From NCBI GenBank assembly GCA_963204795.1, contig CAUJHX010000182.1, forward strand, positions 56,903 to 120,902: a DNA stretch of 64,000 nt, written 5' to 3'. Positions 4,278-64,000 of this stretch are shown piece after piece (position 1 is the stretch's first letter; each line of letters opens with the position of its first letter). The DNA is from Pseudomonadota bacterium (GTDB lineage: Bacteria; Pseudomonadota; Gammaproteobacteria; Steroidobacterales; Steroidobacteraceae). The position numbers and the translations under genes were made by a program. Below the pieces are notes generated by a model. That model ran no database searches and was not told the DNA's origin. It saw only the letters and a program-made list of their open reading frames with translations.

Positions 4278-4612
4278 GGTTCCTCCGGGCGCGCGTAGTA
4301 GAGCAGCGCCTCTCGTGTGCCGCAGCGCGCGCACTTGCACCAAACCTTGGGCGGCGCACTCGTCAAGACCTCGTTCGCGGTCAGCATGTCAAACACCCAT
4401 TCCGCGCCAGGCCCGCAAGCGCACAACCACAGAGGCTCGGGATCGCTCAGTCGGGCAAGGCGCAGCCCGTAGCGAGCCAGCTCCAGGTTGGCCTGCCTGA
4501 ACAGCTCGCGCTCGCTCGGATCTGCGAGCCGTTGCATCACCAGCCGCCCAGTCTCGCCCACTACCGCGCGAACGAACTCGGCCGCGCCCATCTCGCGCTT
4601 GTCGTCCGTCAT
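4274..4612 (-). CDS. hypothetical protein (112 aa) with CxC...CxxC
   Basis: ATG 4612 overlaps the thyX stop (ATGA) and its own stop overlaps the tmk ATG. Starts MTDDKREMGAAEFVRAV. Contains LCACGPG and CKCARCG. Confidence 0.6.
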   Translation of the reverse strand: MTDDKREMGAAEFVRAVVGETGRLVMQRLADPSERELFRQANLELARYGLRLARLSDPEPLWLCACGPGAEWVFDMLTANEVLTSAPPKVWCKCARCGTREALLYYARPEEP

Positions 4613-5622: not shown

Positions 5623-5658
5623 CACTTCTTGTCCTTTCGGTCATCACTTCTTGTCCTT
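5615..5658. repeat. perfect 22-bp tandem duplication spanning the upstream-gene stop / thyX start junction
   Basis: Forward unit tcggtcatcacttcttgtcctt at 5615-5636 and again at 5637-5658. On the coding strand this is AAGGACAAGAAGTGATGACCGA x2. Confidence 0.9.
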
Positions 5659-14136: not shown

Positions 14137-14165
14137 TTGACTCTCCCGAGCGTTACATGTAACGC
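14137..14165 (+). promoter_or_regulatory. promoter candidate overlapped by a 14-bp perfect palindrome (operator candidate)
   Basis: TTGACT (14137-14142), N17, TAACGC (14160-14165). The palindrome CGTTACATGTAACG at 14151-14164 overlaps the -10 element. Confidence 0.4.
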
Positions 14166-15161: not shown

Positions 15162-16108
15162 GCGAGAGCCAGGACGAGCGTGGCGCTGGTGGATTGGTGC
15201 CGCTCAGCGAGGTGATGATGGAACACCTGAAGCCGGCGCACGACGCGATGAGGGCTCGACGCCTGGAATGGTGGTCGCAGCGCGAGATCGCTGACGGCGC
15301 GAAGGAGAAGGGCTGGCGCTGGGTGCGAAAGCTGATCCTGCCGGCCGACGTCACGCGCGAAGAGATCGCAGCGCTTGAGCCGGTGCTGCAGTGGGCGCAA
15401 GAGCGGCTGGATCAGTGCAGCACATGTCCGAAGACCGGCGGCGCGTGCGACGTGGATTACTACATGGGCGCGGGTGAAGGCACCGCGCCGGTGTGGAACG
15501 CCGAGACGCGCGATGTCGAGTTCAAGCCGTGCGCACGGTTCTACGAGCACCGCATCCGCTTGCGACTCGCCGGCTTCGGAGTGCCAGAGGTTCTGCTTGG
15601 TGCGAACTTCGACAACTTCAGCGTCAGTGACGAGCTGCGCGCCGAGATGCAGGCGTATGTCGCTAGCTTCAAGGACGTAGGCGCGAAGGGCTACTACCTG
15701 AACGGCAGCGTCGGTACAGGCAAGAGCCATCTGGCCGCAGCGATAACGCGAGCGCTCGTCGAGAAGCGGATCATTGGCTCGGCCTACTTCGCGTACGTGC
15801 CGAAGTTCTTCGACGAGATCCGAAACAACTTCGACCGTCCCGTCGAAGAACGCGACGAGTTCATGCGGCGCGTGCTGCAGTGCGATCTGCTCGTGATGGA
15901 TGACCTGGGCGCGGAGCGAACGACCGAGTGGGTGCGCGACCAGCTCGGGATCATCATCCACATGCGCTGGGCGAACCAGAAGCCAGTGCTGGTCACAAGC
16001 AACCGGACTTTGGAAGAGTACCGAGAGCTGCTCGGTGAGCGCGCCTACTCGCGCTTGCGCTCGCTGACTCCGTATCGTCGCCTCGTCGGAGGCACGGACC
16101 AGCGATGA
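15158..16108 (+). CDS. DnaC/IstB-like AAA+ helicase loader
   Basis: 316 aa from ATG 15158 (ATGA overlap). Walker A GSVGTGKSHLAAAI and Walker B LLVMDDLGAE. Confidence 0.8.
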   Translation: MSESQDERGAGGLVPLSEVMMEHLKPAHDAMRARRLEWWSQREIADGAKEKGWRWVRKLILPADVTREEIAALEPVLQWAQERLDQCSTCPKTGGACDVDYYMGAGEGTAPVWNAETRDVEFKPCARFYEHRIRLRLAGFGVPEVLLGANFDNFSVSDELRAEMQAYVASFKDVGAKGYYLNGSVGTGKSHLAAAITRALVEKRIIGSAYFAYVPKFFDEIRNNFDRPVEERDEFMRRVLQCDLLVMDDLGAERTTEWVRDQLGIIIHMRWANQKPVLVTSNRTLEEYRELLGERAYSRLRSLTPYRRLVGGTDQR

Positions 16109-20940: not shown

Positions 20941-21010
20941 GGAGAGGCCCGTAAGGGCCCCCCCCAGGGGCCCGTAAGGGTCTCCCCCAGAGACCTGTAA
21001 GGGCCTCCCC
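20941..21010. repeat. three tandem 23-bp units, each an imperfect hairpin closed by a GTAA loop
   Basis: Units at 20941-20964, 20965-20987 and 20988-21010. GTAA at 20951, 20974 and 20997 (exact 23-nt phasing). Consensus CAGrGrCCyGTAAGGGyCyCCCC. Confidence 0.85.
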
Positions 21011-21032
21011 AGAGCGCGTCACATGCAAGCCT

Positions 21033-21878: not shown

Positions 21879-22336
21879 TCCAGCTCGTGACGGCCCGAAG
21901 CGGCATCGGCTGTCGGATCGATGCCCACCGACTGATCGAGCGGCTGTGGATCGGGTCAGCTCCGAGCCGCGACAAGGATCTCGGCGCATGCGGGTTCGAT
22001 GCGGTGGTTCTTTGCGCCGAGGAGTATCAGCCGCGAGGCGCCTTCGGATCGGCGACCGCGGTGCACGCCGGCTTCGACGACGGCGAAATGGATACGCGGA
22101 CTGCGCAGGTCGCGTCGGGAGCTGCCGAAGAGGTCGTTCGCCGGTGGCGGAGGGGTGAGCGCGTGCTAGTGACTTGCATGGCCGGCCGCAACCGCTCGGG
22201 TCTCGTGAGCGCGCTCGCGCTTCGCCGGATCGGCGGGGTAACCGGGCGTCAGGCGCTGCGACATGTGCAGATGATGCGGCCGACCGCCTTGACGAACCCC
22301 AACTTCGCCAACTTCCTCGCAACGCTCGGTGCGTGA
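21875..22336 (+). CDS. dual-specificity (Cys-based) protein phosphatase
   Basis: 153 aa from GTG 21875 (GTGA overlap). CX5R(S/T) active-site loop VLVTCMAGRNRSGLV. Upstream RLWIGSAP and DAVVLCAEE are typical DSP context. Confidence 0.7.
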   Translation: MIQLVTARSGIGCRIDAHRLIERLWIGSAPSRDKDLGACGFDAVVLCAEEYQPRGAFGSATAVHAGFDDGEMDTRTAQVASGAAEEVVRRWRRGERVLVTCMAGRNRSGLVSALALRRIGGVTGRQALRHVQMMRPTALTNPNFANFLATLGA

Positions 22337-23064
22337 TGTTCGGATACCTGCCTGACCCAGAAGACAAGCGCGATCTGCCGTTCGACTTTTTGTCCACGCA
22401 GCAGGTTCCGCCCGAAGTCGACCTTCAGGGCCGTTGTGTCGCGATCCCGAATCAGGGCGGCACCTCCAGCTGCGTCGGACAGGCGACCCGCCAGGGCTTC
22501 GGCGTCGAAGAGGCGCGCTACGGGATCATCGACCCCGCGTCGGCCATGGGCATCTACTTCAACGCCCGCGCCGAGCATGGCGTCGAGAAGTTCGACTCTG
22601 GCACGCATGTGCGAACCGCCATCAAGTCCGCGGTGAAGTTCGGCCCGCTCCGCGAGCGAGACTGGCCGTTCGACGCCTCGCTGATCAACAAGCGTCCACC
22701 ATGGCGCGCATACCGCAACGCCCACGACGGCAAGGGCCCGCAGGGCTACTACCGCATCGTCGAAATCGGAGACGCTCGACTCGACGCGATCCGTCGCGCG
22801 TTGGCGGCCGAGCACCCGGTCGTCTTCGGCACGAACGTCGCGGAGAGCTTCACGCAGGACGACGGGCCGTTCCGGATCGACCGCCCGGACTCGTCGGAGC
22901 GTATTGCGGGCGGCCACGCCATGTGTCTCGTCGGCTACAAGGACGACATGTTCCGTGTCGCCAACTCCTGGGGCACCGGCTGGCGCGACCAAGGCTTCGC
23001 TTGGATGACCGAGAGCTACCTGACCTGGGTCAGCACGCGCGATCTTTGGGTCATCGTGGTGTGA
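22336..23064 (+). CDS. papain-like cysteine peptidase (C1 family)
   Basis: 242 aa from ATG 22336 (TGATG overlap). QGGTSSCVGQA (Gln/Cys), GGHAMCLVGY (His) and NSWGTGWRDQGF (Asn-Ser-Trp). Confidence 0.85.
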   Translation: MFGYLPDPEDKRDLPFDFLSTQQVPPEVDLQGRCVAIPNQGGTSSCVGQATRQGFGVEEARYGIIDPASAMGIYFNARAEHGVEKFDSGTHVRTAIKSAVKFGPLRERDWPFDASLINKRPPWRAYRNAHDGKGPQGYYRIVEIGDARLDAIRRALAAEHPVVFGTNVAESFTQDDGPFRIDRPDSSERIAGGHAMCLVGYKDDMFRVANSWGTGWRDQGFAWMTESYLTWVSTRDLWVIVV

Positions 23065-40075: not shown

Positions 40076-42388
40076 ATGAGTCAGAAAGCCGTCGGACGAG
40101 CCTTCAGGATCACGGACAAGGACGCGAGGTCATATGACCGGACGACCAAGCCGCGCTCCAAGATGCGCCCGAACCCGATGGGGGTGACCACGCTCGCGAT
40201 GGTCAACGGCCGCGGCGCATATGCGTCAGCGAAGGCTGGCGCTCAGGGCCAAACCAGGGCGCAGCGCCTCGCGCGGGCCCGCAAGCTGATCGGAGGCAAG
40301 GGCATGCAGTCCAACGCTCGCGGCCATCGCGCCGCGTTCATTTCCGCCATGCGGTCCAACAAGGGCTCCGCGAAGAGCAAGGGCTCGGGCGCCAAGAGCA
40401 CGGATCTCCGCCGCCGCGGCAAGCGGCTGGCCGCCTACAAGTCCGCCCTGAAGCGCAACGGGACCAAGGCCGGCGCGGCTCGGGCGGCGCTTCGCGCGGT
40501 GCCGTTCACCGCGAACGAGCGCAAGCGCAAGACGAGCTTCGCGGGCGTGAAGGCTCGCAAGAAGTACCGCCGCAACGACTTCGTCGGTGTCGGCAAGTCG
40601 GCCTGGGGCGAAGCGGGCGCAAGCAAGCCGGCAGCGAAAGCGAAGAACAAGCAGCCTCGCACGCAGCGTCGCCCGACGCGCGCGCAGTACCAGGCTCCTC
40701 CTCCAGAGAAAAAGAAGACCTCGCGAAAGGGAAAGCAAGTGGCGAAAGCGAAGCGAAAGACCAAGGCAAAGAAGCGTCGCGCGGCCGGTTCCCAGTACCG
40801 GACCGTGAAGCAGACCGTGAAGCGCAAGACTCGCGTCGCGTTCGGCAAGTACAAGCGTGCCCGGCTCTACAACCCGCGCACCGGGAAGACCGAGTACAGC
40901 TACATGTACCGCTCCGGCGGCAAGCTGCGCCGGATCCCGACCGCAGCCGTCTCGGGCTGGGGAGAGCGGGGCAAGAAGTCCGGCGAGCGCGCCACGAAGA
41001 TGGCGGCTCGCATGCAGGCGGCGCGCAAGCGCGCTGCCGACCGAATCCTCAAGGAGGGCGACGTGTTCATCCCGAACAAGAAGCGCAAGACCAAGAAGAA
41101 GCGCAAGGGCTCCAGCAAGCGCAAGAGCGCGAAGCGCGTGGCGGCCGGCAAGAAGGCAGCTCGCACGCGCAAGCGCCGGGCGAAGGCATCGGGCGCGAAG
41201 CGGCGCAAGTCGAAGGGCGGCGCGAAGCGCAAGCGCAAGAGCGCGAAGGCATCGGGCGCGAAGCGGCGCAAGTCGAAGGGCGGCGCGAAGCGCAAGCGCA
41301 AGAGCGCGAAGCGCGTGGCGGCCGGCAAGAAGGCAGCTCGCACGCGCAAGCGCAAGGGCGGCGGCAAGAAGCGCAAGGCGAGCGCGAAGCGCGGCGGCAA
41401 GCGCGGCGGCAAGCGCCGGAGCGGCGCAAAGCGTCTGCGGAAGGGCACGTACTACGTGGCCAACCGTCGGCGTCGGCGGAGCAAGGGTCGTCGGATGCGC
41501 AAGAACGCGTTCATGGCGAACCTGAAGAACGTGCTCATCACCGGCACGCTCGTCGCCGTCGGCTACATGGGTCACCGCGTGCTCACCTCGCTCGCCTGCG
41601 AGTACATCTTCACGCCGTACGTCACGGCGCCCGAAGGCAAGGAGCCGAACCTCGCGCTCAAGACCTGGGAGAAGCCCATCTGCGGCGCCGTCGTCGGCCT
41701 CGTGGGTGTCGGCGCGCTCTCGGTCATGGCCGACAAGCGGATCATGTCGGGTGAAACCGCCATGAAGATCGGTGGCGGCATGGTGGCCTCGCTCGTTCAG
41801 TACGTCGTCGTGAGCGCTCTCGCTCAGTTCGACCAGCCGAAGGCAGCGAGCTACCTGAGCGGCTACTCCAACTCGGCGGCCTACGGCCTGCGCGGCAACC
41901 GCCGCGGCATGTCCGGGATGTCGAGCATCATGCCCCACTACCAGCAGCTGGGAGCCTTCCAGCAGGCGGCGGCGGGCATGGGCGAGTACTTCACCGGCAC
42001 CGGCGCCTTCGAGCAGGCGGCGGCGGGCGTCGGCGAGTACTTCGTGCCGGGTGGCACCAAGGGCGTCGGTCAGTACGAGGCCGCGGGCCCGCTCGCCATG
42101 CAGGCGGCGGCCAACGGCATCGGCGAGATCGAGGACGGCATCCGTCCGGACTCGAACCTCGACCACGTGCTCGATCTGGCGGAGTCGGCGGCCGGCCTCG
42201 GTGAGTACTACACCGCGACCCCGGGCGCCGGCGGCTATGCCGAGGGCACCGTCCCCCAGCAGAGCCAGTGGATCCCCAACGGTCCGCTGTGGGCCGGCAC
42301 CATGGCGGCCAAGGACACGATGGCCACGAGCGAGCTGCCTGCAGGCGTGCTCGCGACCGTCGGAGGCAACGGCGTCCTGAGCGGCTGA
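40076..42388 (+). CDS. polybasic (Lys/Arg/Ala) repeat protein fused to a membrane domain and a GxGEY-repeat tail
   Basis: 770 aa from ATG 40076 (track GTG 40064). The first roughly 470 aa are K/R/A/G-rich with perfect internal repeats. Hydrophobic helices follow: VLITGTLVAVGYMG, ICGAVVGLVGVGALSVMA and IGGGMVASLVQYVVVSALA. The tail carries GMGEYF, GVGEYF, GVGQYE, GIGEIE and GLGEYY. Confidence 0.7.
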   Translation: MSQKAVGRAFRITDKDARSYDRTTKPRSKMRPNPMGVTTLAMVNGRGAYASAKAGAQGQTRAQRLARARKLIGGKGMQSNARGHRAAFISAMRSNKGSAKSKGSGAKSTDLRRRGKRLAAYKSALKRNGTKAGAARAALRAVPFTANERKRKTSFAGVKARKKYRRNDFVGVGKSAWGEAGASKPAAKAKNKQPRTQRRPTRAQYQAPPPEKKKTSRKGKQVAKAKRKTKAKKRRAAGSQYRTVKQTVKRKTRVAFGKYKRARLYNPRTGKTEYSYMYRSGGKLRRIPTAAVSGWGERGKKSGERATKMAARMQAARKRAADRILKEGDVFIPNKKRKTKKKRKGSSKRKSAKRVAAGKKAARTRKRRAKASGAKRRKSKGGAKRKRKSAKASGAKRRKSKGGAKRKRKSAKRVAAGKKAARTRKRKGGGKKRKASAKRGGKRGGKRRSGAKRLRKGTYYVANRRRRRSKGRRMRKNAFMANLKNVLITGTLVAVGYMGHRVLTSLACEYIFTPYVTAPEGKEPNLALKTWEKPICGAVVGLVGVGALSVMADKRIMSGETAMKIGGGMVASLVQYVVVSALAQFDQPKAASYLSGYSNSAAYGLRGNRRGMSGMSSIMPHYQQLGAFQQAAAGMGEYFTGTGAFEQAAAGVGEYFVPGGTKGVGQYEAAGPLAMQAAANGIGEIEDGIRPDSNLDHVLDLAESAAGLGEYYTATPGAGGYAEGTVPQQSQWIPNGPLWAGTMAAKDTMATSELPAGVLATVGGNGVLSG
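41117..41353 (+). repeat. nested perfect direct repeats inside the polybasic gene
   Basis: A 63-bp unit occurs twice in tandem at 41180-41242 and 41243-41305 (AKASGAKRRKSKGGAKRKRKS). It is flanked by a 60-bp direct repeat at 41117-41176 and 41294-41353 (KRKSAKRVAAGKKAARTRKR). Confidence 0.9.
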
Positions 42389-43332: not shown

Positions 43333-43356
43333 GTTACGTGGGCTAGCTCACGTAAC
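43333..43356. repeat. 24-bp near-perfect palindrome centred on GCTAGC
   Basis: GTTACGTG-G-GCTAGC-T-CACGTAAC. The two off-centre mismatches form a G:T pair. Confidence 0.85.
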
Positions 43357-53277: not shown

Positions 53278-53306
53278 TTGCAGCAAGCCGAGCAAGCGGC
53301 TAGCTT
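53278..53306 (+). promoter_or_regulatory. promoter candidate, leaderless design, -10 embedded in the GCTAGC pair
   Basis: TTGCAG (53278-53283), N17, TAGCTT (53301-53306), N10, ATG 53317. The 15-bp palindrome GGCTTGCAGCAAGCC (53275-53289) overlaps the -35. Confidence 0.5.
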
Positions 53307-53313
53307 GGCTAGC
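53299..53313. repeat. tandem palindrome GCTAGC-N3-GCTAGC (site 3 of 4)
   Basis: GCTAGC at 53299-53304 and 53308-53313. ATG 53317 lies 3 nt downstream with no SD. Confidence 0.9.
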
Positions 53314-53316
53314 GCA

Positions 53317-53910
53317 ATGTCCGACGATACCAAGTACGATTTCGGTGTCCCCACCGTCATCGTGAAGGGCGGAACCACCTCGGCCTCCTACGACAAGGAG
53401 CAGGCTCGCCGTCGCGCCGACGCGGAGCAGAGACGGGGCATCCAGGACGCGCAGAGGGCCATGGGGCAGCAGGGCACAAGCCGGGATGGCGGGTTTTCAC
53501 TCGCCCGCCTCGGCAGCGCGCGCATGATCACGGAGAACTCGCCTCGGCTGGTCCTCTACTACATGAACAAGGACCACTCCGTTCGCCAGGAGTGCAAGAG
53601 CGAGATCACGTTCTACGAGCACCCGACGAAGGCGGGCGAGATGGACATGATGTTCGCCATGGTCTGCCCGCGCTGCCTGGAGCGCGGCATCGCCCAGGGC
53701 GAGAGCCAGATGCTGATCAAGGCCTCGCATCGGTCGTTCTGGATCGACGAGAGACTCAAAGGGACCGTCGTGGCGCTTCGCGATCCGTGGGGCAACCTCG
53801 ACCCGGTCATCATCTGCGGCACGGTGACTGCACAGGACACGATCAAGTGCAGCAACTACAACTGCACGTACGCGGTCCGCATCAACGACAGCAAGGTCTA
53901 CGAGGTATGA
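53317..53910 (+). CDS. hypothetical protein (197 aa)
   Basis: I prefer ATG 53317 (MSDDTKYDF) over the track TTG 53278. Contains CPRC...C...CSNYNC. Confidence 0.6.
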   Translation: MSDDTKYDFGVPTVIVKGGTTSASYDKEQARRRADAEQRRGIQDAQRAMGQQGTSRDGGFSLARLGSARMITENSPRLVLYYMNKDHSVRQECKSEITFYEHPTKAGEMDMMFAMVCPRCLERGIAQGESQMLIKASHRSFWIDERLKGTVVALRDPWGNLDPVIICGTVTAQDTIKCSNYNCTYAVRINDSKVYEV

Positions 53911-54131
53911 AGTCAGTTTCGAGCAGGCAGCAGGCTCGCTACGGGACCGTCACCGTGGCGGTGAGGCTGGGGTGCTACGAGGTTCTGGAGTACGGCCTTG
54001 GCGGGGTCGAGCAGATGGCGGTGGTGTTGCCGGTGAAGCCGGAGCGCCCTCGGAAGCTGGCCAAGGAGCTGCGCGCCATCGCGCGCCAGCTCGATGGCGG
54101 CCAGGAAGAAGAGCGCGATGACGCTGGTTGA
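53907..54131 (+). CDS. small hypothetical protein (74 aa)
   Basis: ATGA overlap. Starts MKSVSSRQQARYGTVTVAV. Confidence 0.5.
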   Translation: MKSVSSRQQARYGTVTVAVRLGCYEVLEYGLGGVEQMAVVLPVKPERPRKLAKELRAIARQLDGGQEEERDDAG

Positions 54132-55485
54132 TCAGCTCGCTTGCCATGCCGACACGGGAGGCCAGCACTCGCTGTTGGACGGCGATGGCCGAGGCACGCC
54201 GCCCACCGAGGCAGAACTCGACATCCCGTACGCGTCGCCGTCCGAGCCACCGCTTCTGGAGTGCGGCGTAGTCTACTCGGCTGACTGGAAGAAGTTCGCC
54301 GACGGGATGGCTCGCCACGCTCGCGCGCAGGCGCTCGCCCTGGCCGCGGCCGGCATTGGGGTCCGCCTGCAGTCGATCAGCAGCGAGGGCATGTTTCTGG
54401 ACAGCGACGTCCGCTCCGAGGTGCGAGACGAGGTTGCCCACCTGACGAACGTCACCATGAAGAGCGTGATGATCGCAGTGCGGCAGGCGGTGTTTCACAG
54501 CGCCGACTTCGTGCGCAACCTTGTTGTGCCTGCCGGCGGTCGCTTGGTGGACTTCGAGCTGGAGCAGCGCATCTACCAGAACACCATCATCTACACGTCG
54601 CTGGAGCGAGATCGCGTCTCGCCCGTGCTCATCGACATCTTCAAGCGCTGCGCCGAGCTATGGGTGCCGTGTCATCAGAACGCTCAGGCGCTCGTCAGCA
54701 GCGGCATGCCCGAGGACAAGGTGCACGTCATCCCGTACCCATATGACCCGGCAGGACCGGTCTGCAAGATCCCGGCGCCTCGCGGCCATGAGCGCGTCCC
54801 GGAGGGCAAGCGGTTCTACAGCATAGGCAAGTGGGAGCCTCGGAAGAACCACGCCGGCCTGCTGATGGCGTTCCTTCGGGCCTTCACGCCCAAGGACAAG
54901 GCGTCTCTCGTGCTCAAGGTGCACGGCTGGGGCGCCTGGGAGGGCTACCCGGACATCCAGCAGGCGCTCACGCTGTGCGGGGAAGACCCGGTCGTGCGCG
55001 CGAACGGCTGGACGGACATCAACCTGCGCAAGCGCGTGAAGATCATCACGGACAAGATCAGCGACGCGGAGATCGTGGCCTTGCATGCGCAGAACAACAT
55101 CTACGTGTCGGCCTCGCACGGCGAGGCGTGGGATCTACCAGCCTTCGACGCCAAGTGCGCCGGGAACCGGCTCGTGCACGTTGGATTCGGCGGAAGCGCG
55201 GACTATGCCGACGACGCCGACGTCTGGTTGGGGTACAGGCTGAAGCCCGTGAACAAGGTCTACGGCTGGGAGGAGTGCAACTGGGCCGAGTACGACATGG
55301 AAGAAATGGTTGCTTCCTTGCGCATCGCCCAGCCGCCGACGAAGCGCGTGCACCCGAAGGGCTTCAACGCGCGCTTCAGCGCACATGCGGTAGGCGAGAA
55401 GATGAAGGATCGCATCTTGCGCGTGGCTGCCAGGAGCCATGTCGAGCTGCCAGCGATGCTGGAGCGAGCTGGGTCGTTCGGATGA
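54118..55485 (+). CDS. GT-B fold glycosyltransferase (GT4-like)
   Basis: About 455 aa (alternative ATG at 54094). Contains FYSIGKWEPRKNHAGLLMAF, VSASHGEAWDLPAFDAKCAGNRLV (E-x7-E-type region), and spacing typical of retaining GT4 enzymes. Confidence 0.65.
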   Translation: MTLVDQLACHADTGGQHSLLDGDGRGTPPTEAELDIPYASPSEPPLLECGVVYSADWKKFADGMARHARAQALALAAAGIGVRLQSISSEGMFLDSDVRSEVRDEVAHLTNVTMKSVMIAVRQAVFHSADFVRNLVVPAGGRLVDFELEQRIYQNTIIYTSLERDRVSPVLIDIFKRCAELWVPCHQNAQALVSSGMPEDKVHVIPYPYDPAGPVCKIPAPRGHERVPEGKRFYSIGKWEPRKNHAGLLMAFLRAFTPKDKASLVLKVHGWGAWEGYPDIQQALTLCGEDPVVRANGWTDINLRKRVKIITDKISDAEIVALHAQNNIYVSASHGEAWDLPAFDAKCAGNRLVHVGFGGSADYADDADVWLGYRLKPVNKVYGWEECNWAEYDMEEMVASLRIAQPPTKRVHPKGFNARFSAHAVGEKMKDRILRVAARSHVELPAMLERAGSFG

Positions 55486-55796
55486 GGCTCGACGAGGTCA
55501 TCGAGGCCATTCGTCCCTTCGCGGACGAGCGTTACCCGTACGCTCTTCCCGTTATGGTCGCCACGCGCGTAATCTCGCGCATCGTGCATGAGTACGACAA
55601 CCTGCCAAAAAAACCTGAGCCCTCGTCGGCGCAGCCCGCCGTGATAACGGTTGGGATCAAGGATAGGCACGTCGTCCTCGTTTCCAGCGGCACCGCGGAG
55701 GTCGAACCCAGCTTCTTAGTGTGGACGGCTGCACAGGCTCGCGAGGTCGCCGCAAAGCTACTTGAGCTGGCACGCTCACTGGACGGCAAGGGATGA
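55482..55796 (+). CDS. hypothetical protein (104 aa)
   Basis: ATGA overlap. Confidence 0.5.
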   Translation: MRLDEVIEAIRPFADERYPYALPVMVATRVISRIVHEYDNLPKKPEPSSAQPAVITVGIKDRHVVLVSSGTAEVEPSFLVWTAAQAREVAAKLLELARSLDGKG

Positions 55797-55987
55797 GCGA
55801 CAAGGGTCTCTGTAGGTGCGGCAAGCCGGCGCCGCTGGACGTCTCGATCAGCGCAACGCCGCCGTTCGACCCGAGCCGCACACCACGCAGCGAGTTGCAT
55901 TTTTCGGCAATCGCATGCCGGGCATGCGCCTTCGAGGCAGCGAAGCTCCTGCTGTCGTTCTTGGAGTCACGGGGGAACCCGTCGTGA
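55793..55987 (+). CDS. small Cys protein (64 aa)
   Basis: ATGA overlap. Contains CRCG...CRAC. Confidence 0.45.
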   Translation: MSDKGLCRCGKPAPLDVSISATPPFDPSRTPRSELHFSAIACRACAFEAAKLLLSFLESRGNPS

Positions 55988-57030
55988 TCCGCCTCTACGG
56001 TCACCACAAGGGCGAGAGTTCATTCGTCCAGGTCACCCGTGGCCTGCGAGCGGCGGCCAAGTCGGCCGAGCTGCTCGCAGGCGAGGTCGCCGTGGACATG
56101 CTGGAGCAGGAACGCGTGCAGCCGGGAGCAGACGCTCTCGTTGGGCTCTTCTGTGGCGCCCCGCTCAGCATCGCTCTGGGGCCGCGTATGGGGCTGCACA
56201 AGGAACACTGGTTGCTGCTCGCCCCGAACAGCGAAGGGATCCCACCGTTCCTGAGAGAGCCGCTGTCCGCGGCGACAGGGTTCCTGGCCCCCAGCTCGTG
56301 GGCCGCCGACGTCTTGCGGCGTGAGTTTCCGTCACACCGGGTGCTGGTCGCTCCGCACGGCGTGCACCCGGATGTGCATATGCCCTCGGAAGAGGACCGC
56401 GAAGCGCGAACCAAGGAATACTCGGCCGGCACGTTTCGCGTTGCGCACTTCACGAGCACGCTGGGCCAGCGCAAAGGGACACTGCAGCTCCTGAGCGCAT
56501 GGAGGAACTGGTCCGAGAAGCCAGCGGGAGCACAGTTGCTCATCGTGGCCAACCCGCTCGCGGTCAACGAGTACCTGTGGCGAGCGAAGGAAATGGGGGT
56601 AGATCCAAAGACGGTGGGCGTCGTCGCGAATCCGGAGGCGCCAGTCTCCGCGCTGGCGGCAGCGCTGCGTCACGCTCACGTCGTCTGCCAGCCATCGCGC
56701 GCAGAGGGCTTTGGGATCGTGCCGCTCGAAGCTCGGGCTTGCGGCGTTCCGGTCGTGATGACGAAGTGCACCGGACACCGTGAATTTTGGAGCCCGCAAG
56801 GCACCGTCACGGTCGCACACGGCGACCTGGAGCCGCTCGACGACTACCCGGGGGCCGTGGCGCCGTCTGTGTCATCTGAAGCCATCCGGCTGGCGCTTTC
56901 CGAAGCCTTTGAGACCTGGCTCGCGCTGTCCGATGAAGCGGCGCGCGACGCCGACTCTGTGCGCTGGGAATGGTCGTGGCAGAAGCAGAATGCACCGGTG
57001 CTCCAAGAGCTGGTTGACGGGGCGCGCTAG
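55984..57030 (+). CDS. GT4-family glycosyltransferase
   Basis: 348 aa from GTG 55984 (GTGA overlap). Contains SRAEGFGIVPLEARACGVPVVMT (the classic GT4 EX7E region) and FTSTLGQRKG. Confidence 0.75.
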   Translation: MIRLYGHHKGESSFVQVTRGLRAAAKSAELLAGEVAVDMLEQERVQPGADALVGLFCGAPLSIALGPRMGLHKEHWLLLAPNSEGIPPFLREPLSAATGFLAPSSWAADVLRREFPSHRVLVAPHGVHPDVHMPSEEDREARTKEYSAGTFRVAHFTSTLGQRKGTLQLLSAWRNWSEKPAGAQLLIVANPLAVNEYLWRAKEMGVDPKTVGVVANPEAPVSALAAALRHAHVVCQPSRAEGFGIVPLEARACGVPVVMTKCTGHREFWSPQGTVTVAHGDLEPLDDYPGAVAPSVSSEAIRLALSEAFETWLALSDEAARDADSVRWEWSWQKQNAPVLQELVDGAR

Positions 57031-57042
57031 CCGAGCTAGCAG
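57014..57042 (+). promoter_or_regulatory. promoter candidate, leaderless design, -10 embedded in the GCTAGC pair
   Basis: TTGACG (57014-57019), N17, TAGCAG (57037-57042), N7, ATG 57050. Confidence 0.5.
57026..57040. repeat. tandem palindrome GCTAGC-N3-GCTAGC (site 4 of 4)
   Basis: GCTAGC at 57026-57031 and 57035-57040. The first copy contains the TAG stop of the GT gene. Confidence 0.9.
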
Positions 57043-57049
57043 AGCAGCG

Positions 57050-57385
57050 ATGTCCGACAAAGAGGATCTGGTCAGCAAGAACTACTGGTATTGGTTCGAC
57101 GGCAAGCCTGTCTTGGTGCAGCTACACGAGCCGTGGGTGGGCGTGACCTACCCGAACGATCCGGTGCTGCAGAAGGACGAGAGCGGCAAGCCCGTCGGAG
57201 TTGTGACGGTCCCTTTTCTCAAGGGGATCTGCCACGTGCACCCCGACGGTGACGACGTGATGTTCGTGCTGGAGACGACAGACCCCAACCCGAACGCCCG
57301 CGCCATGGCGTTCATTGCGATTCGTCGCGAGCTGGTCGCCTTCATCACGCATATCGAAAGGCGCCTCGTAGAGCCGTCAGCGTGA
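57050..57385 (+). CDS. hypothetical protein (111 aa)
   Basis: Starts MSDKEDLVSKNYWYWFDGKPV. No SD; leaderless-type context. Confidence 0.55.
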   Translation: MSDKEDLVSKNYWYWFDGKPVLVQLHEPWVGVTYPNDPVLQKDESGKPVGVVTVPFLKGICHVHPDGDDVMFVLETTDPNPNARAMAFIAIRRELVAFITHIERRLVEPSA

Positions 57386-57990
57386 AGAAGTTCCGCCTCT
57401 GGTTGATCGCCCGGGTGGCAGAGACGAAGTACGCGCGCGATCCGGTGGCCGACGATGCTGCGCTGGAAGCCCTAGCGCAGAAGATGGGTTTGCAGCCGGA
57501 CTTGCTGGCAGAGGCCAGAGTGCGCGCTCGCACGCTGGGTCGCGCGCCGACCGGGCAGAACCAGGGGGACCGAAGGCTGGTGGCGGTGTCCTGTGCCGAG
57601 GCTCCGTACCGGGCCTGGGAGAAACATGTGGACACGTGGGGAGGCATCAGCCAGTCGGACCTATTGCGCTCCCTGATCTATGCCTACCTCTGCGGCACGT
57701 ACGAGCCTCCGTGTGAGCGACTGACGCGGCTCTGGGTCTGGGACGGGAGGCACGTGACGGTCACCAGGATCAAGGGGCGCCCGGCGTACTCGATTCACAG
57801 CTTCATCAAGCGCGGCGCGTACGTGGCCTTGGTGGAACGCGCGCGGCGCCTGAACCACACGGTGACAGCGCTCCTGCGCGCGCTTATCCTGGAGAACATG
57901 GATGGCCGGTTCGGTCAGCGCGGCGCCTTGACGATTCTGGATCTGCGCAGCATGCCGGGAGACCCGGAGTTCTACCTGAAGGGGCAGTGA
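57382..57990 (+). CDS. possible tandem ribbon-helix-helix DNA-binding protein (202 aa)
   Basis: GTGA overlap. Two segments show a strand-helix-helix pattern: RRLVAVSCAEAPYRAWEKHVDTWGGISQSDLLRSLIYAYL and KRGAYVALVERARRLNHTVTALLRALILE. Confidence 0.35.
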   Translation: MKKFRLWLIARVAETKYARDPVADDAALEALAQKMGLQPDLLAEARVRARTLGRAPTGQNQGDRRLVAVSCAEAPYRAWEKHVDTWGGISQSDLLRSLIYAYLCGTYEPPCERLTRLWVWDGRHVTVTRIKGRPAYSIHSFIKRGAYVALVERARRLNHTVTALLRALILENMDGRFGQRGALTILDLRSMPGDPEFYLKGQ

Positions 57991-58911: not shown

Positions 58912-58925
58912 GTCGATGTTAGTGT
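58896..58925 (+). promoter_or_regulatory. promoter candidate, leaderless design, for the recombinase gene
   Basis: TGGCCA (58896-58901), N18, TAGTGT (58920-58925), N7, GTG 58933. A TGTAACG half-site at 58923-58929 overlaps it. Confidence 0.3.
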
Positions 58926-58932
58926 AACGGGC

Positions 58933-61900
58933 GTGGAGCTGACCAAGAACCGCGCCGAGCTGGCCGTGCTGCGTGGCAAGCGCGCCCCAGAGCATATGGC
59001 CCTGTGGGTCCAGGCCTTCGCCGACGGCGACGAGGCACTGGCCCAGCGCTATGCCATCGCCGTCGCGACGTTCCTCGGTGACAGCACGGCCTCGGGCGAG
59101 GAGTGGGCGAGCTACGTCGGCAAGCTCTCGCCCCGCACGCGCGAGGCATATGCGTTCGCGGTCACGGAGTTCTTCGAGTGGGCAGCGCGCCAGCACGGTC
59201 AGATCGTTCCACCACACAAGGTGCTGCGCAAGGACGCCGAGGACTACGCGAACTGGCTCTCCAACCGACCGTTCTCGCTCACCGAAGAGAAGCTGAACGA
59301 CTTCGATCAGGAGCGACGCCGCACGATCTATGAGACCGTGGTGAAGATCGGGCCGGCGGACCGCCGCAGCATCTACGGAGCGCTGCCGGCGGCGATGAAG
59401 CCCGGCTACACGTTGGAGCTGCTGACGAGCACGCTGGGGCGCATGGTGCTGCACGACCTGCTCGACCGAAGCCCGACGCTCTCACAGGTACGCGTCGAGC
59501 ATCCGCGAGCAGGAATCGACCAGAACACCATCATGGTCCCCGGTCCCGATCCAGAGGGACCGTGGGTGCCCATGGAGCTGGCAGACGTCTTCCAGTATGC
59601 GATCCCGCGCCCGCGCGGCGTGTCTCGCTCCACCATCGCGCTCAGGCTCTCTGCGCTGAGCACCTTCTGGGACGTGCTCGCCCAGGGCGAGAACGTGCCC
59701 GGTGGCCACGCGATCATCCAGCACAACATCTTCAAGGGCATGAAGAAGCGCGTGACGCGCGGACTGAGCCGCGAACGCAAAGCGTCGGCGGCGTCGCGGC
59801 GCATGGACCCATCGCTCGTGCCGCGACTGCTCAACGCTGCGAACCTGGCCAAGACGCTCCCCGAGAAGCGCGACAAGGCGCTGTTGTACTTCCTGGTATT
59901 CACGGGATCTCGGCTTTCCGAGGCGGTCAACCTCCGAAGGGGGGAGCCTCCGGCGTCCGAGATCAACCGCTGGCCGGGGTGGTTCGTCGGCAACACGGAG
60001 CCGCCCGTCGTGCGCGTTCGGCGCAAAGGAGGCAAGCTCCAGTCGCTCCCGTTTCCCCCTGTCGCGCTGCGCGCGCTGGCAGACTTCCAGGCCGATCTGG
60101 ACAGGCGCTCCGCGCCGCTCAGCGCGCAGAGCAGCGACCCAAAGGCGCCGCACTACCTGCATCCCAACAGCCCGCGGTGGCGCTACCGCGAGCTGGCTCG
60201 CGCCTCCGACGCGCCGCTGTTTCCGCCGGTGCACTTCTGGGGCGCCAACAGCACGTACAACTACCAGGAGTTCAAGCCCAACGCCCCGAACACATATGGG
60301 CCTCCGACGTACCGCCGCTCCATGAGCAAGGCTGGCGTGTATCAGCTACTCGTGCGTCTCGCGCGCAGGGCCGGCCTGGTCGAGTCCGAGATCGAGCAGG
60401 TGCATCCACACGCGCTCCGACACTTCGCGGCAACCGCCATGGCGAAGGGCGGGAAAGACCTGCGCGAGATCCAGGCCATCCTCGGGCACGAGTCCGTCAC
60501 GACGACCGAGGGCTACCTGGCCGACATCGAGAACGTGGTGGCGCTCTCGGGCCAGGCCGAGATCCTGGAGTATCTGTCGCAGTTCGAGGGGGCGGCCGAG
60601 GCAGTGCCCCCGCCGCCCCCGCACGCGCCCAAGGCGCCTCCGAAGCGGGAGGTCATCGAGACCTACGGCATCCCGGCCCCGGAAGCCCCCAGGAGGCCGC
60701 CCAGAGAGCAGGAGCCGCAGGTTCCGGGGCAACCGCCACTGCGCCCGCCGAAGCCGCCGAAGCCGCCGAAGCCCGCCAAGGCCCCGCCGCCGGCCGTCGT
60801 CGCGGCAGCCCAGGCTGCGTCTCGCGTGCCGCCGGCGGAGACCGCAGCCGTCCAGGCGCTCGCTCCAGCATATGTGGCGCCAGAGGAGCTTCCGCCGCAC
60901 ACCCTGGCGGTCGTGCCGCACGTCACCTGGCCGGAGGCGGCGTCCATCCCGACGGCCGCCGGGCGCGTCACGGTCTACCAGGAGCCACCGGAGCCACGCG
61001 CGGCGCCCGAGCGCAAGATCGTGGCGGTCGAAGGCGATCCCATCCCGGAAGAGGTGAAGGCCGACATCGCGCTCAACCAGATCCGCGACAAGCAGAGCCC
61101 CGGCTCACCGGACGATGTCTACGAAGCGATGGAGCGCGGTGATCAGTGGGAGAGCATCGAGTTCACGCTGTTGCGACCCCGGAAGCGCCCGCGGGACGAC
61201 GACCTTGTGACCCTGAGCGGGAGCAAGGAGCGCAAGGACGAGCAGGTCCAGACGCGCTCACCCCGCCACGAGTTCCTGGCGACGTTCTACGATCCGTGGC
61301 CGCCGAACTACGGCATCGGGACCGTGAGCTTGCTTCCGTGGTTCACCAGAGGAAGGCCAGACGCGAAAGGGCGCGTCAAGGCTCCGAATGACGAGGGCGA
61401 ATGGGTTGAGATCCCACCGCTGCCGGTGCTTTCTCCGGAGCAGGTATTAGCTGAGACTACCGGTACGCATGTGCTCGACGGGCTAGAGGCGCTGTACGCA
61501 CTCTGGCTCACCGGAGATCCTGCGCAAGGAATTGCTCCGTCGCCGTCGAGAACCTTCGGCCTTGTGCGCTGGTACGGATTCTTTGCGCACACGACGGGAG
61601 CGTTGCAGGCGTATCTCCGCGACAAAAAGAAGGAGTACGACCGCATCGGCAGTTCTTCCATGGGAACACCCGTGGCCAATGTTCCGACATGGGTCGCATG
61701 GGACGTACTTGCAACCGTCGGCAAGAACGTGCGCGCCCACAAGGACGAATGGGTGCTGGCCTGGTTCCGAGAGAACGCCCACACCTACACCACTACGCTC
61801 AAGGCATATGAGCGCATGAAGGGCAAGGAAGCTAAGCCCGGAGAACAGGTCTTCACGCGCGCTTTTGAGGTGGCAACAGTCGAGGCTGAGTCTATGGCTC

Positions 61901-63597
61901 TGCGCACGACCTTGCCGGGGTGGTTTGCCGACAACGATCCAGTGCACGCCATCTACGAGCGAGATCCCAAGGAATGGGAGACGTTCGCGTCCTGGCTGGC
62001 CAACATCACGGGACAGAAGCTCGGCGCCGCTCGTCGCGAGGCTCGCGCTGACGCTGCCGAATATGCTGAGAAGTCGTGGGAGGAGAAGCGCGAGGAGGCG
62101 CGAGACCTCTTGCGGCAGCACACCGAGGTCATGGAGAAGTTGCGATTCATCCAGCTCATGCTGGCTGGCCAGCGTCCCGTGCTACCCGAGAGAGTCGACC
62201 GAAGCGTCATCCCCAGAACCGGGCAGGTGGACGATCTGCAAGCCGAAAAGTTGCTGGTAGAGTGGGAGCGGCAGGAAGTTGCGCGCGCGCTGCAGGCGCT
62301 CGGGATGCCGGATCCATTGGAGCTGCGAGAAGTGCGTAGCGCCGAAGAGTCGAGCGACGTCCAGGCCGCAAGCGACGCTAAGGCTGCCGAAGCGGAAGCC
62401 AAGGCTGCTGGCATCGACGTCTCAGAGCTACATCCGAAGCCCGAGAAGCATCCGCTCACCCCAGAGCGGGTCAACGAGCTACTGAAGAAGTACTTTCCGG
62501 CTCCGCCCGAAGAAGAGGACGCCAACCTGCTTCGTGGTAGCTCACTCTTCGACGCGCGGCTCCTCAACATCGACTACCGCAGCCACACGATCTCGCACAC
62601 GCCAGAGTACCGGGAGACGTTTGCGGAGCAGTACGACGGGCGCGATTCGGAGCTGGTCATGCGACGCGCGGCGCGCGCCATGTGGGAGTACGCCAAAAGA
62701 AACACCTTCCTGCTGCAGCCGCCGGAGAAGCGTACGAAGCGGAAGGAAGAGGGCTACGGCCCTCTGTATGCGGTGATGCTTTGCCACATTGCGTGGGTGG
62801 TCCCGGCCCCCGAGGAGATGGAGCGTCAAGCTGTCGCCTCCGGGCGCGTGAGCAAGCTCGGCCCCGAAGCGAGAAAGGACTACCTCGCTGCCCAGGCACA
62901 GCTGCTCTATGAGCTTGCATATGGGCGACGACCGGAGCCGAAGCTCAAGCTGACAGAGTCAGAGACTCAGGAAGAGCGAGTGGCCTACGTGATGCGCATG
63001 ATGGCCGAGAAGGGATCTCCGCGCACGGAAGCAGAGGTCAGGGCCGCCTGGGAGAGCTTCGACGTCGCGAACGTGATCTTCGGCGAGTCCGAGCTGGCCC
63101 CAGAAGCCGAATTGCGCGAGATCGCGCAGTACCTTGGGGCCGAGGGTTTTATGACAGCGCTCCCCACGCGAGAAACAGCCGAGGCCGGTCGCGCCGAAGA
63201 GCGCAAAGCCAGGCGAAAGGCGAAGCCCAAGGTTGCGGAAGCGGCCCCCGAGGTCGAGTGGGCCCCCAAGCTCAAAGAGGGCGAGCGCGTCATAGTCCCC
63301 GGCGTCCTCAAGCGAGCCCCCAAGCAGACCGGCAAGCCCGGCAAGCTCACGGCGAACGTGGGCGCAGCGATCACGTTCGAGTACATGACCAACGAGAGCG
63401 TGGGCGCCTGGTATCAGACGCGCTGCGAGTTCCTGCCGCCCGACGGCAAGAGGTACATGGCCAACAAGGGCACCGTGACCTACGTGAGCCCGGGCGCGAT
63501 GGCGCACAAGCGCAGGTTCCTGGTCAACGCGCGCGGCGTGCTGCCGTCGCCGTTGGCCATGATCGCTGCGATGAACCTAGCGGCGGTAGAGGCGTAG
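58933..63597 (+). CDS. giant tyrosine recombinase fusion protein (1554 aa)
   Basis: N-terminal SAM-like core-binding region (SPRTREAYAFAVTEFFEWAARQHG). Catalytic motifs FTGSRLSEAVNLR (Arg), RKGGKLQSLPF (Lys), HPHALRHFAAT (HxxR) and ILGHESVTTTEGYL (His and Tyr), all within about the first 530 aa. A Pro-rich linker follows (PPKPPKPPKPAKAPPP). The remaining roughly 900 aa show no motif I recognise. Confidence 0.8.
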   Translation: MELTKNRAELAVLRGKRAPEHMALWVQAFADGDEALAQRYAIAVATFLGDSTASGEEWASYVGKLSPRTREAYAFAVTEFFEWAARQHGQIVPPHKVLRKDAEDYANWLSNRPFSLTEEKLNDFDQERRRTIYETVVKIGPADRRSIYGALPAAMKPGYTLELLTSTLGRMVLHDLLDRSPTLSQVRVEHPRAGIDQNTIMVPGPDPEGPWVPMELADVFQYAIPRPRGVSRSTIALRLSALSTFWDVLAQGENVPGGHAIIQHNIFKGMKKRVTRGLSRERKASAASRRMDPSLVPRLLNAANLAKTLPEKRDKALLYFLVFTGSRLSEAVNLRRGEPPASEINRWPGWFVGNTEPPVVRVRRKGGKLQSLPFPPVALRALADFQADLDRRSAPLSAQSSDPKAPHYLHPNSPRWRYRELARASDAPLFPPVHFWGANSTYNYQEFKPNAPNTYGPPTYRRSMSKAGVYQLLVRLARRAGLVESEIEQVHPHALRHFAATAMAKGGKDLREIQAILGHESVTTTEGYLADIENVVALSGQAEILEYLSQFEGAAEAVPPPPPHAPKAPPKREVIETYGIPAPEAPRRPPREQEPQVPGQPPLRPPKPPKPPKPAKAPPPAVVAAAQAASRVPPAETAAVQALAPAYVAPEELPPHTLAVVPHVTWPEAASIPTAAGRVTVYQEPPEPRAAPERKIVAVEGDPIPEEVKADIALNQIRDKQSPGSPDDVYEAMERGDQWESIEFTLLRPRKRPRDDDLVTLSGSKERKDEQVQTRSPRHEFLATFYDPWPPNYGIGTVSLLPWFTRGRPDAKGRVKAPNDEGEWVEIPPLPVLSPEQVLAETTGTHVLDGLEALYALWLTGDPAQGIAPSPSRTFGLVRWYGFFAHTTGALQAYLRDKKKEYDRIGSSSMGTPVANVPTWVAWDVLATVGKNVRAHKDEWVLAWFRENAHTYTTTLKAYERMKGKEAKPGEQVFTRAFEVATVEAESMALRTTLPGWFADNDPVHAIYERDPKEWETFASWLANITGQKLGAARREARADAAEYAEKSWEEKREEARDLLRQHTEVMEKLRFIQLMLAGQRPVLPERVDRSVIPRTGQVDDLQAEKLLVEWERQEVARALQALGMPDPLELREVRSAEESSDVQAASDAKAAEAEAKAAGIDVSELHPKPEKHPLTPERVNELLKKYFPAPPEEEDANLLRGSSLFDARLLNIDYRSHTISHTPEYRETFAEQYDGRDSELVMRRAARAMWEYAKRNTFLLQPPEKRTKRKEEGYGPLYAVMLCHIAWVVPAPEEMERQAVASGRVSKLGPEARKDYLAAQAQLLYELAYGRRPEPKLKLTESETQEERVAYVMRMMAEKGSPRTEAEVRAAWESFDVANVIFGESELAPEAELREIAQYLGAEGFMTALPTRETAEAGRAEERKARRKAKPKVAEAAPEVEWAPKLKEGERVIVPGVLKRAPKQTGKPGKLTANVGAAITFEYMTNESVGAWYQTRCEFLPPDGKRYMANKGTVTYVSPGAMAHKRRFLVNARGVLPSPLAMIAAMNLAAVEA

Positions 63598-63599
63598 GG

Positions 63600-64000
63600 C
63601 TACTTGTACTGGCACACGTGGAAGCCTGACCCCAGTCGAGGCTCCGGTTTGCATATGCGGTCAGCGGGACAGTCGGGAGCTGACGGGTCGCAAAGCGCCC
63701 CGCGCCCCGCGGTGTCACACTTGTCGCCGCAGCGCACCTCGTCGATCTTTTTGTACGAGAAGATGACGCAGCACTTGCCGCCGCCAGGGCACAAAGTGGC
63801 CGTGTCGCAGCTCACGTGAACCCCGCCGGTGTATCCCATGGGAGAGCCGCACGGGTCGTACTTGCCTTGGAACTTTTCGTCCACGCAGAAGTTCTTGACG
63901 GTCGTGTCGCCAAGAGCGTGCTGTCCCGCGCAGCAGTTGTACTGGTTGTCGATGAAGGGGTTGTAGACGTCGACCACTTTGCAGCTCAGGCCAGTGCCAC
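63600..64000 (-). CDS. Cys-rich secreted-type protein, C-terminal part (5-prime end off-window)
   Basis: The frame stays open to the window edge. There are 20 or more Cys in about 130 aa (NCCAGQ, CPGGGKCC, CGDKC, CPADRIC). It converges on the recombinase gene with a 2-nt gap. Confidence 0.6.
   Translation of the reverse strand, partial: GTGLSCKVVDVYNPFIDNQYNCCAGQHALGDTTVKNFCVDEKFQGKYDPCGSPMGYTGGVHVSCDTATLCPGGGKCCVIFSYKKIDEVRCGDKCDTAGRGALCDPSAPDCPADRICKPEPRLGSGFHVCQYK

Follow-up and report, generated by a model that had tools for sequence, protein, structure and literature searches.

What does a tyrosine recombinase of 1554 amino acids (aa) act on, and what does its additional length do, when tyrosine recombinases normally measure 300–450 aa? 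The question is posed by a 64-kb stretch of contig CAUJHX010000182.1 (assembly GCA_963204795.1), referred to here as the window; all positions are those of the window, and aa numbers are those of the 1554-aa protein. The gene is complete, begins with GTG and occupies 58933..63597 on the plus strand, and homologues of its product form 93 clusters. The protein joins a recombinase part to a large C-terminal module, and relatives of the phage-like genome that encodes it carry tandem 28-bp sites resembling bacterial dif. The best reading of these findings, to which we give slightly less than an even chance, is that the protein is a recombinase for resolution or cyclisation that regulates itself and takes the phage's own site as its target.

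The integrity of the gene was examined at the level of both sequence and family. The open reading frame (ORF) contains no internal stop, and its GC content at third codon positions (GC3) stays at 0.72–0.88 from end to end in its frame; the ORF is therefore one continuous coding frame, present and uninterrupted as the initial annotation had described it. Overall GC content is 0.60–0.65 at 61400–62800 compared with 0.67–0.77 just upstream, which agrees with the lower GC reported there for part of the C-terminal region. We found that the exact 1554-aa protein is also encoded on contigs of independent samples and assemblies. The homologue search returned 93 protein clusters of 978–1618 aa, most of which align over their full length, down to 31% identity, indicating at the sequence level that the fusion of recombinase and module is real and old. 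The possibility that a frameshift or misassembly joined an ordinary integrase to a separate gene is refuted by the identical protein from independent assemblies, by the 93 clusters and a further 169 module homologues, all co-linear, and by GC3 that stays in frame throughout.

As judged from sequence and structure prediction, the first ~550 aa are a complete Xer/Cre-type tyrosine recombinase, predicted to be catalytically competent. Pfam Phage_integrase (PF00589) matched with E=1.3e-17 (64.6 bits against a cut-off of 27.1), PHROG integrase families matched the same part, and PDB sequences of XerD and XerA matched aa 464–530. The enlarged helical N-terminal domain, of the core-binding, SAM-like kind (aa 1–255; 58933..59697, plus strand), was delimited by Pfam, an AlphaFold2 (AF2) model and alignment A1. 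It opens with the conserved NRxELAxLRGKR, shows weak Pfam SAM-like matches at aa 64–112 and 221–249 and contains an insertion at aa ~115–220. The catalytic domain (aa ~270–550; 59741..60582, plus strand; alignments A1 and A4, Foldseek) carries an insertion at aa ~385–465. Its catalytic residues are R327 in TGSRLSE (59911–59913), K365 (60025–60027), H493 and R496 in HALRH (60409–60411 and 60418–60420), H519 (60487–60489) and the nucleophile Y528 in GHES...EGY (60514–60516), all on the plus strand. All six were invariant among the 30 sequences of alignment A1; in alignment A4 (93 sequences), H493, R496, H519 and Y528 were invariant and R327 and K365 at least 90% conserved. Profile-to-PDB alignment placed the six residues on the catalytic boxes of XerD and XerA, bearing out the earlier assignment of TGSRLSE, HALRH and GHESVTTTEGY as hallmarks within the first ~530 aa.

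The AF2 model of aa 1–600 reached a predicted local distance difference test (pLDDT) score of 86.6. Its best Foldseek matches were XerA, XerH, XerD, Brujita Int and Cre, with a probability of 1.00 to XerA, XerH, XerD and Cre over ~300–500 aligned columns, and no telomere resolvase was among the matches of this model. NCBIfam scores were far under their cut-offs (XerC, 84 against 335 bits; XerA, 83 against 220; XerD, 74 against 330), and the enzyme is therefore Xer-like, not an Xer orthologue. The Pfam and NCBIfam scans revealed no arm-binding domain family, and the N-terminus is helical and SAM-like. The recombinase is thus of the simple two-domain Xer/Cre type, without an arm-binding domain.

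The recombinase part is followed by a Pro-rich, length-variable, disordered linker at aa ~556–645 (60598..60867, plus strand). Its composition, 29% Pro, confirmed the linker noticed at first; pLDDT was below 60 in the AF2 model, and occupancy and conservation were low in the family alignment. Within it lies the 9-bp repeat CCGCCGAAG in 3.2 copies (60745–60773, plus strand), which encodes PPKPPKPPK. The C-terminal module then extends over aa ~646–1554 (60868..63594, plus strand). According to its AF2 model (mean pLDDT 83.4, predicted template modelling score 0.84), this module has a confidently predicted fold without known relative, in which the first ~190 residues are beta-rich and the remainder mostly helical. 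Conserved blocks run through it, including SPGSP, YDPWPxNYGIG-SLLPWF, PPLPVLSPEQ, PSPxRxxGLVRW and RAHxDxW-NAHTY, and also PxWFxxDDP, WLxNVTGQ, NxxxxSxLFD, DSELxMRRAARAMWE and the terminal LPSPxRMIAAM. At E≤0.001, Foldseek matched the module to nothing in PDB or BFVD. A profile of 13 trimmed modules retrieved nothing from PDB sequences, and Pfam on all 13 at E≤5 produced scattered single matches only. Beyond aa ~550 no match was obtained in Pfam, PHROGs, NCBIfam, PADLOC or PDB sequences, so the ~900 aa in which no motif had been recognised at first proved to match nothing known.

A word-indexed search with the C-terminal part alone returned 13 family members, and an exhaustive profile search of 1.84 billion representative proteins gave 169 matches, nearly all of them 1100–1620 aa long. 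The module starts near residue 600 in these matches, and the short ones look like fragments. Furthermore, PF00589 was present at aa ~280–530 in all seven distant module matches tested. Given the 169 matches and this co-occurrence, we conclude that the module was found only fused to the recombinase. The module is acidic (isoelectric point 5.8, net charge −13) and the recombinase part basic (isoelectric point 9.6), which argues against DNA binding and makes target selection, one of the roles first suggested for the extension, unlikely, and argues instead for protein contacts, control or anchoring. The module therefore probably acts by contacting proteins, not DNA, to control or anchor the reaction.

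We then placed the gene in its genomic context and found that it is a core gene in a clade of uncultivated, high-GC, ~110–140 kb phage-like genomes. The longest contig carrying each of the 93 clusters is at most 140 kb, and 14 clusters lie on contigs of 106–140 kb, pointing to free genomes that are complete at this length. Seven relatives were found on IMG/VR viral contigs of 76–140 kb. The window encodes a ThyX-type thymidylate synthase, a dTMP kinase, a DNA methyltransferase, a RecE-like exonuclease with RecT, a DnaC-like loader, DnaB with an intein, two glycosyltransferases and many ORFs without a match, and the neighbours of the distant member L140 include a tail-like protein and lysis-type genes. 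In every locus inspected, all of them assemblies, phage genes stood on both sides of the recombinase gene, and no integrated prophage copy with attL and attR was seen. No match was obtained when the protein was compared by tblastn with 50,697 GenBank phage records and 72,556 plasmids. A scan of GTDB species genomes showed no full-length member among its best 80 matches and carries little host information, as ordinary integrases swamped it. We found no published description of tyrosine recombinases of this size or of the C-terminal module; the chemistry is familiar, the architecture unprecedented and the domain family uncharacterised.

A palindrome scan of the relatives revealed AT-rich elements with the core CATAA-N6-TTATG, first in L004 and L005; by chance, 64 kb of this composition would yield about 0.07 matches to this core. 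In 11 genomes the elements form a tandem 11-6-11 pair of 28-bp (occasionally 29-bp) subsites, 41–44 bp apart from centre to centre. Each subsite has 11-bp inverted arms of consensus CGTTACCATAA around an asymmetric spacer of 6 bp (sometimes 7 bp), which varies between subsites and between genomes. Bacterial dif has the same 28-bp layout, with inner ATAA-N6-TTATG, as in E. coli GGTGCGCATAA-TGTATA-TTATGTTAAAT (PMC3025954). Wherever flanking genes were in view, the pair sat in the divergent intergenic region that heads the R arm, a gene arm with MoxR and VWA genes, at a distance of 7.5–15 kb from the recombinase gene. Both subsites were intact, with phage genes on both sides, in the loci inspected. 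An 84%-identical relative of the window's phage carries the tandem pair at L148 288–356. No full site was found in the window, L001 or L141, and the equivalent place lies ~12 kb past the window's right end. The recombinase gene itself (58933–63597) contains neither a full site nor an arm with two or fewer mismatches, so the idea that an attP might be embedded in the coding sequence, as in Mx8, found no support.

The strict 28-bp pattern gave one match in 2.9 million IMG/VR contigs, a family member, and five in 241 million JGI records, comprising four family members and one unrelated AT-rich contig. The small genes flanking the tandem sites are not conserved between genomes, and the site-binding protein must therefore be a conserved core protein. 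Similar sites turned up in two further contigs (L156 484–511 and L163 931–958). An unrelated contig of 37% GC, in which no recombinase was seen, holds a 28-bp site that is almost identical and has extended arms (ACACGTTATCATAAC...); in a viral contig of 56% GC, direct repeats of ACGTTACCATAAT adjoin a related site. This type of dif-like site may extend beyond the recombinase family. We also observed that the tandem subsites are nested in larger GC-rich inverted repeats whose sequences differ between genomes, at L148 232–462 (25 nt, 100% identity), L152 13457–13641 (27 nt, 93%), L150 3541–3700 (44 nt, 84%), L147 8247–8450 (42 nt, 81%) and L004 2432–2590 (71 nt, 75%). Most of them share a GGAAC(N)GGGG-like motif on both sides, and they could represent crossed divergent promoters or a structure that forms a cruciform or hairpin. 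In relatives, the operon diverging from the sites contains a sliding-clamp-like gene and a Ku homologue (L150 231–794, L151 1–86), the latter pointing to the handling of linear DNA ends.

A single copy of the 11-bp arm, TTAGTGTAACG, was identified directly before the recombinase gene by sequence and family comparison (58919..58929, strand unassigned). It is separated from the GTG by 3 nt, takes up 11 of the 21 intergenic bases and corresponds to the CGTTAC...TAA-type arm in reverse complement. An arm copy lies 2–6 nt upstream of the recombinase start codon in all 12 family loci. When single arms were scanned with up to two mismatches, they exceeded chance only at the tandem locus and before the recombinase gene, the other scattered matches occurring at the number expected from shuffled sequence. 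The copy before the gene is inverted in two genomes, which favours a signal at the DNA level over one at the RNA level. Furthermore, the deviant tandem-site arm of L004, TTATGACAATG, is identical to the copy before its recombinase gene, and the lineage-specific arm of L009, CGTTACGATAA, is identical at the tandem sites and before the gene. Lineage-specific arms thus covary at both places, which points to one protein reading both. The recombinase itself is the obvious candidate for this reader, and we propose 58919–58929 as a binding site for one recombinase monomer that would serve autoregulation. We also considered the CGTTAC arm as the −10 box of an extracytoplasmic function (ECF)-type promoter of the recombinase gene; this was dropped, since the motif occurs in either orientation and GGAAC is absent at the required distance.

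The outer hexamer of the arm motif recurs, with different spacing, in elements of a putative origin. A CGTTAC-AT-GTAACG palindrome adjoins a TTGACT box at 14137–14165, and a cluster, GTTACCTGTAACGAATGTAACGTCGGTAAC, lies at 14582–14611, where GC is lower, between the genes for RecT and the DnaC-like loader. The pattern GTTAC-N12-20-GTAAC was found twice, against 0.04 matches expected, and the region at 14582–14611 may be an origin or an initiator-binding region.

These features can be assembled into a mechanism for a self-regulating resolution or cyclisation recombinase. The recombinase would bind the 11-bp arms of consensus CGTTACCATAA, and its substrate would be the phage's own locus of two adjacent 28-bp subsites, one acting as the crossover site and the other as an accessory site, an arrangement reminiscent of Tn3 res and of the TnpI IRS. 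Recombination between genome copies at this tandem locus would resolve the multimers arising from the phage's RecE/RecT-type recombination or cyclise the genome. From the tandem subsites the enzyme would repress the flanking operons, and through the single arm at 58919–58929 its own gene, while the C-terminal module, tethered by the ~90-aa disordered linker, would control or anchor the reaction. The asymmetric spacers fit ordinary strand exchange and not the formation of hairpin telomeres. A bolder version would make the family a new class of 'large tyrosine recombinases', in which the obligate ~900-aa module of novel fold acts as an inbuilt controller, coupling strand exchange at the two-subsite locus to a further phage process, for instance replication, packaging or an infection-stage signal. 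In this version, given the large palindrome around the sites, the substrate might also be folded or cruciform DNA, by analogy with integron attC or CTX-phage attP. We think this improbable; if true, the enzyme would be self-sufficient and directional in one polypeptide.

Several considerations count against this account. The link between site and enzyme rests on architecture, on the position of the arm by the gene and on covariation within one phage family, and a different conserved DNA-binding protein that regulates both loci would suit them too. Tandem palindromes in a divergent promoter region have the classic look of a repressor operator. The full sites lie 7.5–15 kb from the gene, whereas XerS, XerH and Cre adjoin theirs. 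The sites are outside the 64-kb window and, for the window's phage, were seen only in the 84%-identical relative L148. Finally, the genome may hold a second copy of the site, or a host may carry an attB.

The recombinase gene stands at the meeting point of two convergent gene arms, the G arm with its glycosyltransferase block and the R arm with MoxR, VWA and RyR genes. In the G arm, the conserved block leading into the recombinase gene (53278..57990, plus strand; Pfam, PHROG, synteny) encodes proteins of 210 aa (53278–53910) and 463 aa (glycosyltransferase-like; 54094–55485), a GT4 glycosyltransferase (55816–57030) and proteins of 111 aa (57050–57385) and 202 aa (57382–57990), all on the plus strand. 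Its synteny groups, F6, F2, F3, F8 and F4, were present in 7–10 of the 10 close family loci compared; other lineages have the block converging on the gene from its 3' side. On the other side, 63600..63977 (minus strand) is the 3' part of a convergent neighbour, whose product measures 244 aa in the full locus. This neighbour closes the R arm, where the L001 gene table also lists RyR, DUF7296, VWA and MoxR genes. The 2-nt gap to this ORF was correctly given at first; the two genes lie on opposite strands and face each other stop to stop. There was no match to a tRNA gene or an Rfam family anywhere in the window, extending the earlier remark that no tRNA gene adjoins the recombinase gene. The flanks of the gene are stop-to-stop or 21-nt junctions without repeats. 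Searches for inverted repeats flanking the gene or its cassette gave chance-level matches only, and no long perfect palindrome was found near the gene.

In nine of ten relatives a dual-specificity-phosphatase-like gene adjoins the recombinase gene divergently; the weak Pfam match of this gene in L004 and L005 is DSPc. The window holds a homologue with a CX5R motif (21914..22339, plus strand; tblastn E=1e-14 to 2e-32), 37 kb from the recombinase gene in this genome, and we dropped the idea of an obligate partner on account of that distance. Across the loci L001 and L004–L012, the phosphatase–recombinase cassette occurs in both orientations between the same arms, co-directional with the G arm in the window, L005 and L010 and with the R arm in seven others. 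Within a clade the cassette always points the same way; the tree calls for at least one inversion event, possibly two. Neither repeats nor arm motifs were found at the cassette borders, which are stop-to-stop junctions. Since one or two events fit the tree and flanking repeats are lacking, we treated the flips as evolutionary rearrangement. As to position in the genome, the recombinase gene starts 41–55% along the contig in five of eight contigs of 111–140 kb (L004, L005, L007, L008 and L010), which hints at linear genomes with fixed ends and a central gene; the other three look permuted.

Other roles for the enzyme and the sites were weighed against the preferred reading of a resolution or cyclisation recombinase. 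It could be a temperate-phage integrase, for which one 28-bp subsite is the attP that recombines with a host attB while the C-terminal module controls directionality. The protein does belong to the phage integrase superfamily, its gene lies between two arms, where int-attP modules are often situated, integrases that are small and lack an arm-binding domain are known, with Brujita Int one of the fold matches, and relatives carry an XRE-type helix-turn-helix gene and a HicA gene in the adjacent arm. Yet none of the 93 clusters lies on a contig longer than 140 kb, and gene and tandem sites were flanked by phage genes on both sides, with intact subsites, in all loci inspected. In the 241 million metagenome records the site pattern led to phage contexts and the one unrelated AT-rich contig only. 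Moreover, the window has no tRNA gene, no excisionase-like Pfam match adjoins the recombinase gene, and no full-length member was among the best GTDB matches, in a scan saturated by ordinary integrases. We consider an integrase unlikely; neither an integrated copy nor a hybrid junction was seen. Alternatively, the palindromes and the half-site could be operators that serve a separate transcription factor, with the recombinase acting on another site and the likeness to dif coincidental. The divergent intergenic position of the pair, its inverted GC-rich GGAAC-like flanks with possibly two crossed promoters, and the reappearance of the outer hexamer CGTTAC at 2-bp spacing near the putative origin (14152–14165 and 14582–14611) would suit an operator. 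Against it, the arms are conserved between genomes and the genes beside the sites are not, only the tandem locus and the bases just before the recombinase gene hold more arm motifs than chance predicts, and the 11-6-11 arrangement, the asymmetric, freely varying spacer and the inner CATAA/TTATG reproduce the layout of Xer sites, just as the closest folds are Xer. An operator of this kind is accordingly judged doubtful.

Two further activities would act on genome form. As a DNA invertase, the enzyme would turn round its own cassette or a larger segment and so produce two isomers of the genome; this was suggested by the cassette being found in both orientations between the same arms across lineages, but the constancy of orientation within clades, the sufficiency of one or two events for the tree, and stop-to-stop borders without inverted repeats or arm motifs make it very improbable. 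Telomere resolution had been listed at first among the possible functions of the extension, and a resolvase making hairpin ends, as TelN does for phage N15, would be in line with the mid-contig position of the gene in five of eight long contigs and with a site locus that is part of a large imperfect palindrome; the TelN gene of N15 is central in the virion map. However, the fold is that of Xer and Cre and not of TelK, TelA or ResT, with no telomere resolvase among the fold matches, and the catalytic signature HxxR/GH...Y is of the recombinase type. Palindromy is lacking in the spacers of the two subsites and at the centre of the whole locus, so that hairpins could form only with mismatches, and no long perfect palindrome lies near the gene. 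Such an activity is therefore hardly credible, and recombination at the phage's own tandem locus remains the reading that we prefer.

Further observations concern the remainder of the window and its surroundings. The DnaB-type replicative helicase at 16105–18825 (plus strand; 906 aa in total) contains an intein with a LAGLIDADG homing endonuclease domain. The ThyX-like thymidylate synthase, dTMP kinase and DNA methyltransferase genes lie together on one arm (2121–5625, minus strand), and one of the two glycosyltransferases beside the recombinase gene (54094–57030, plus strand) matches the family 'GT4 in conflict systems'; together, these genes may form a DNA base-modification pathway. Two independent assemblies (L142 and L143) break no more than 6 nt apart at ~10124–10130, within a 587-aa minus-strand gene, and the spot may be repetitive, variable or a physical end. 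Within a 774-aa ORF that has no Pfam or PHROGs match, 63 bp are perfectly duplicated in tandem (2.1 copies; 41180–41311) and encode a Lys/Arg/Gly-rich stretch. Three tandem 23-nt GC hairpin units (AGAGGCCCGTAAGGGCCTCCCCC) follow a gene end at 20943–21014 and resemble stacked terminators, and a 24-bp palindrome, GTTACGTGGGCTAGCTCACGTAAC, lies between two plus-strand genes at 43333–43356. The arm to the left of the window (L141 14499–18134) encodes proteins of 1211 aa and 542 aa with no recorded Pfam match, a sign of how sparse annotation is in this group of phages.

Beyond what the initial annotation contained, the present analysis adds family-wide conservation, the phage context, the position where the arms converge and the dif-like sites outside the window. 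It describes a recombinase family about four times the usual size that is conserved across a clade of unstudied large phages, and its C-terminal module adds a sizeable new fold family among phage proteins without an assigned function. If the 28-bp sites are the substrate, enzyme and site form a compact, testable pair, from which a Cre-like genome-engineering tool with a new specificity, and possibly built-in regulation, could follow. The system also opens a way to study the maintenance of monomeric genomes in large phages that are lytic or plasmid-like.

Among known systems, the Xer/dif group (XerC/D-dif, XerH-difH, XerS-difSL and archaeal XerA-dif) provided the best sequence and fold matches, over aa ~60–550. 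Like the Xer enzymes, the giant recombinase is a two-domain protein without an arm-binding domain, and like dif, its candidate site places inverted arms of 11 bp around a 6-bp spacer, with CATAA-N6-TTATG innermost, the arms being symmetric as expected of a system with a single recombinase. Unlike them, its recombinase part is enlarged ~1.7-fold by insertions and followed by an extra ~1000 aa, it is encoded by a phage, and its candidate sites occur as a tandem pair away from the gene. In being a simple phage-encoded tyrosine recombinase that would act alone on a symmetric-arm site in its own genome, it resembles Cre-loxP of phage P1. The roles of Cre are cyclisation and multimer resolution rather than chromosomal integration. 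Cre is a 343-aa protein encoded beside a single 34-bp loxP, compared with 1554 aa, paired 28-bp subsites several kilobases away and a half-site before the gene. The candidate sites recall res of Tn3 and gamma-delta and the TnpI IRS of Tn4430, with adjacent subsites in a divergent promoter region and spacers that differ in length between subsites, here 6 and 7 bp. In those systems one crossover subsite is combined with accessory subsites and autoregulation by the recombinase, which provides an analogy for the proposed mechanism; there is no sequence relationship, and their enzymes are ~185–285 aa long and transposon-borne.

Compared with lambda-type integrases, the giant recombinase lacks the N-terminal arm-binding domain, and no attP arm sites lie beside its gene. 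Tyrosine recombinases are generally controlled by separate accessory proteins, such as FtsK, Xis/IHF and PepA/ArgR. With the large serine integrases (phiC31, Bxb1) the giant recombinase shares only the concept of a catalytic domain joined to a large C-terminal region, which in those enzymes governs site choice and directionality. Fold and mechanism are unrelated, and the C-terminal regions of the serine integrases bind DNA, whereas the module of the giant recombinase is acidic and of novel predicted fold.

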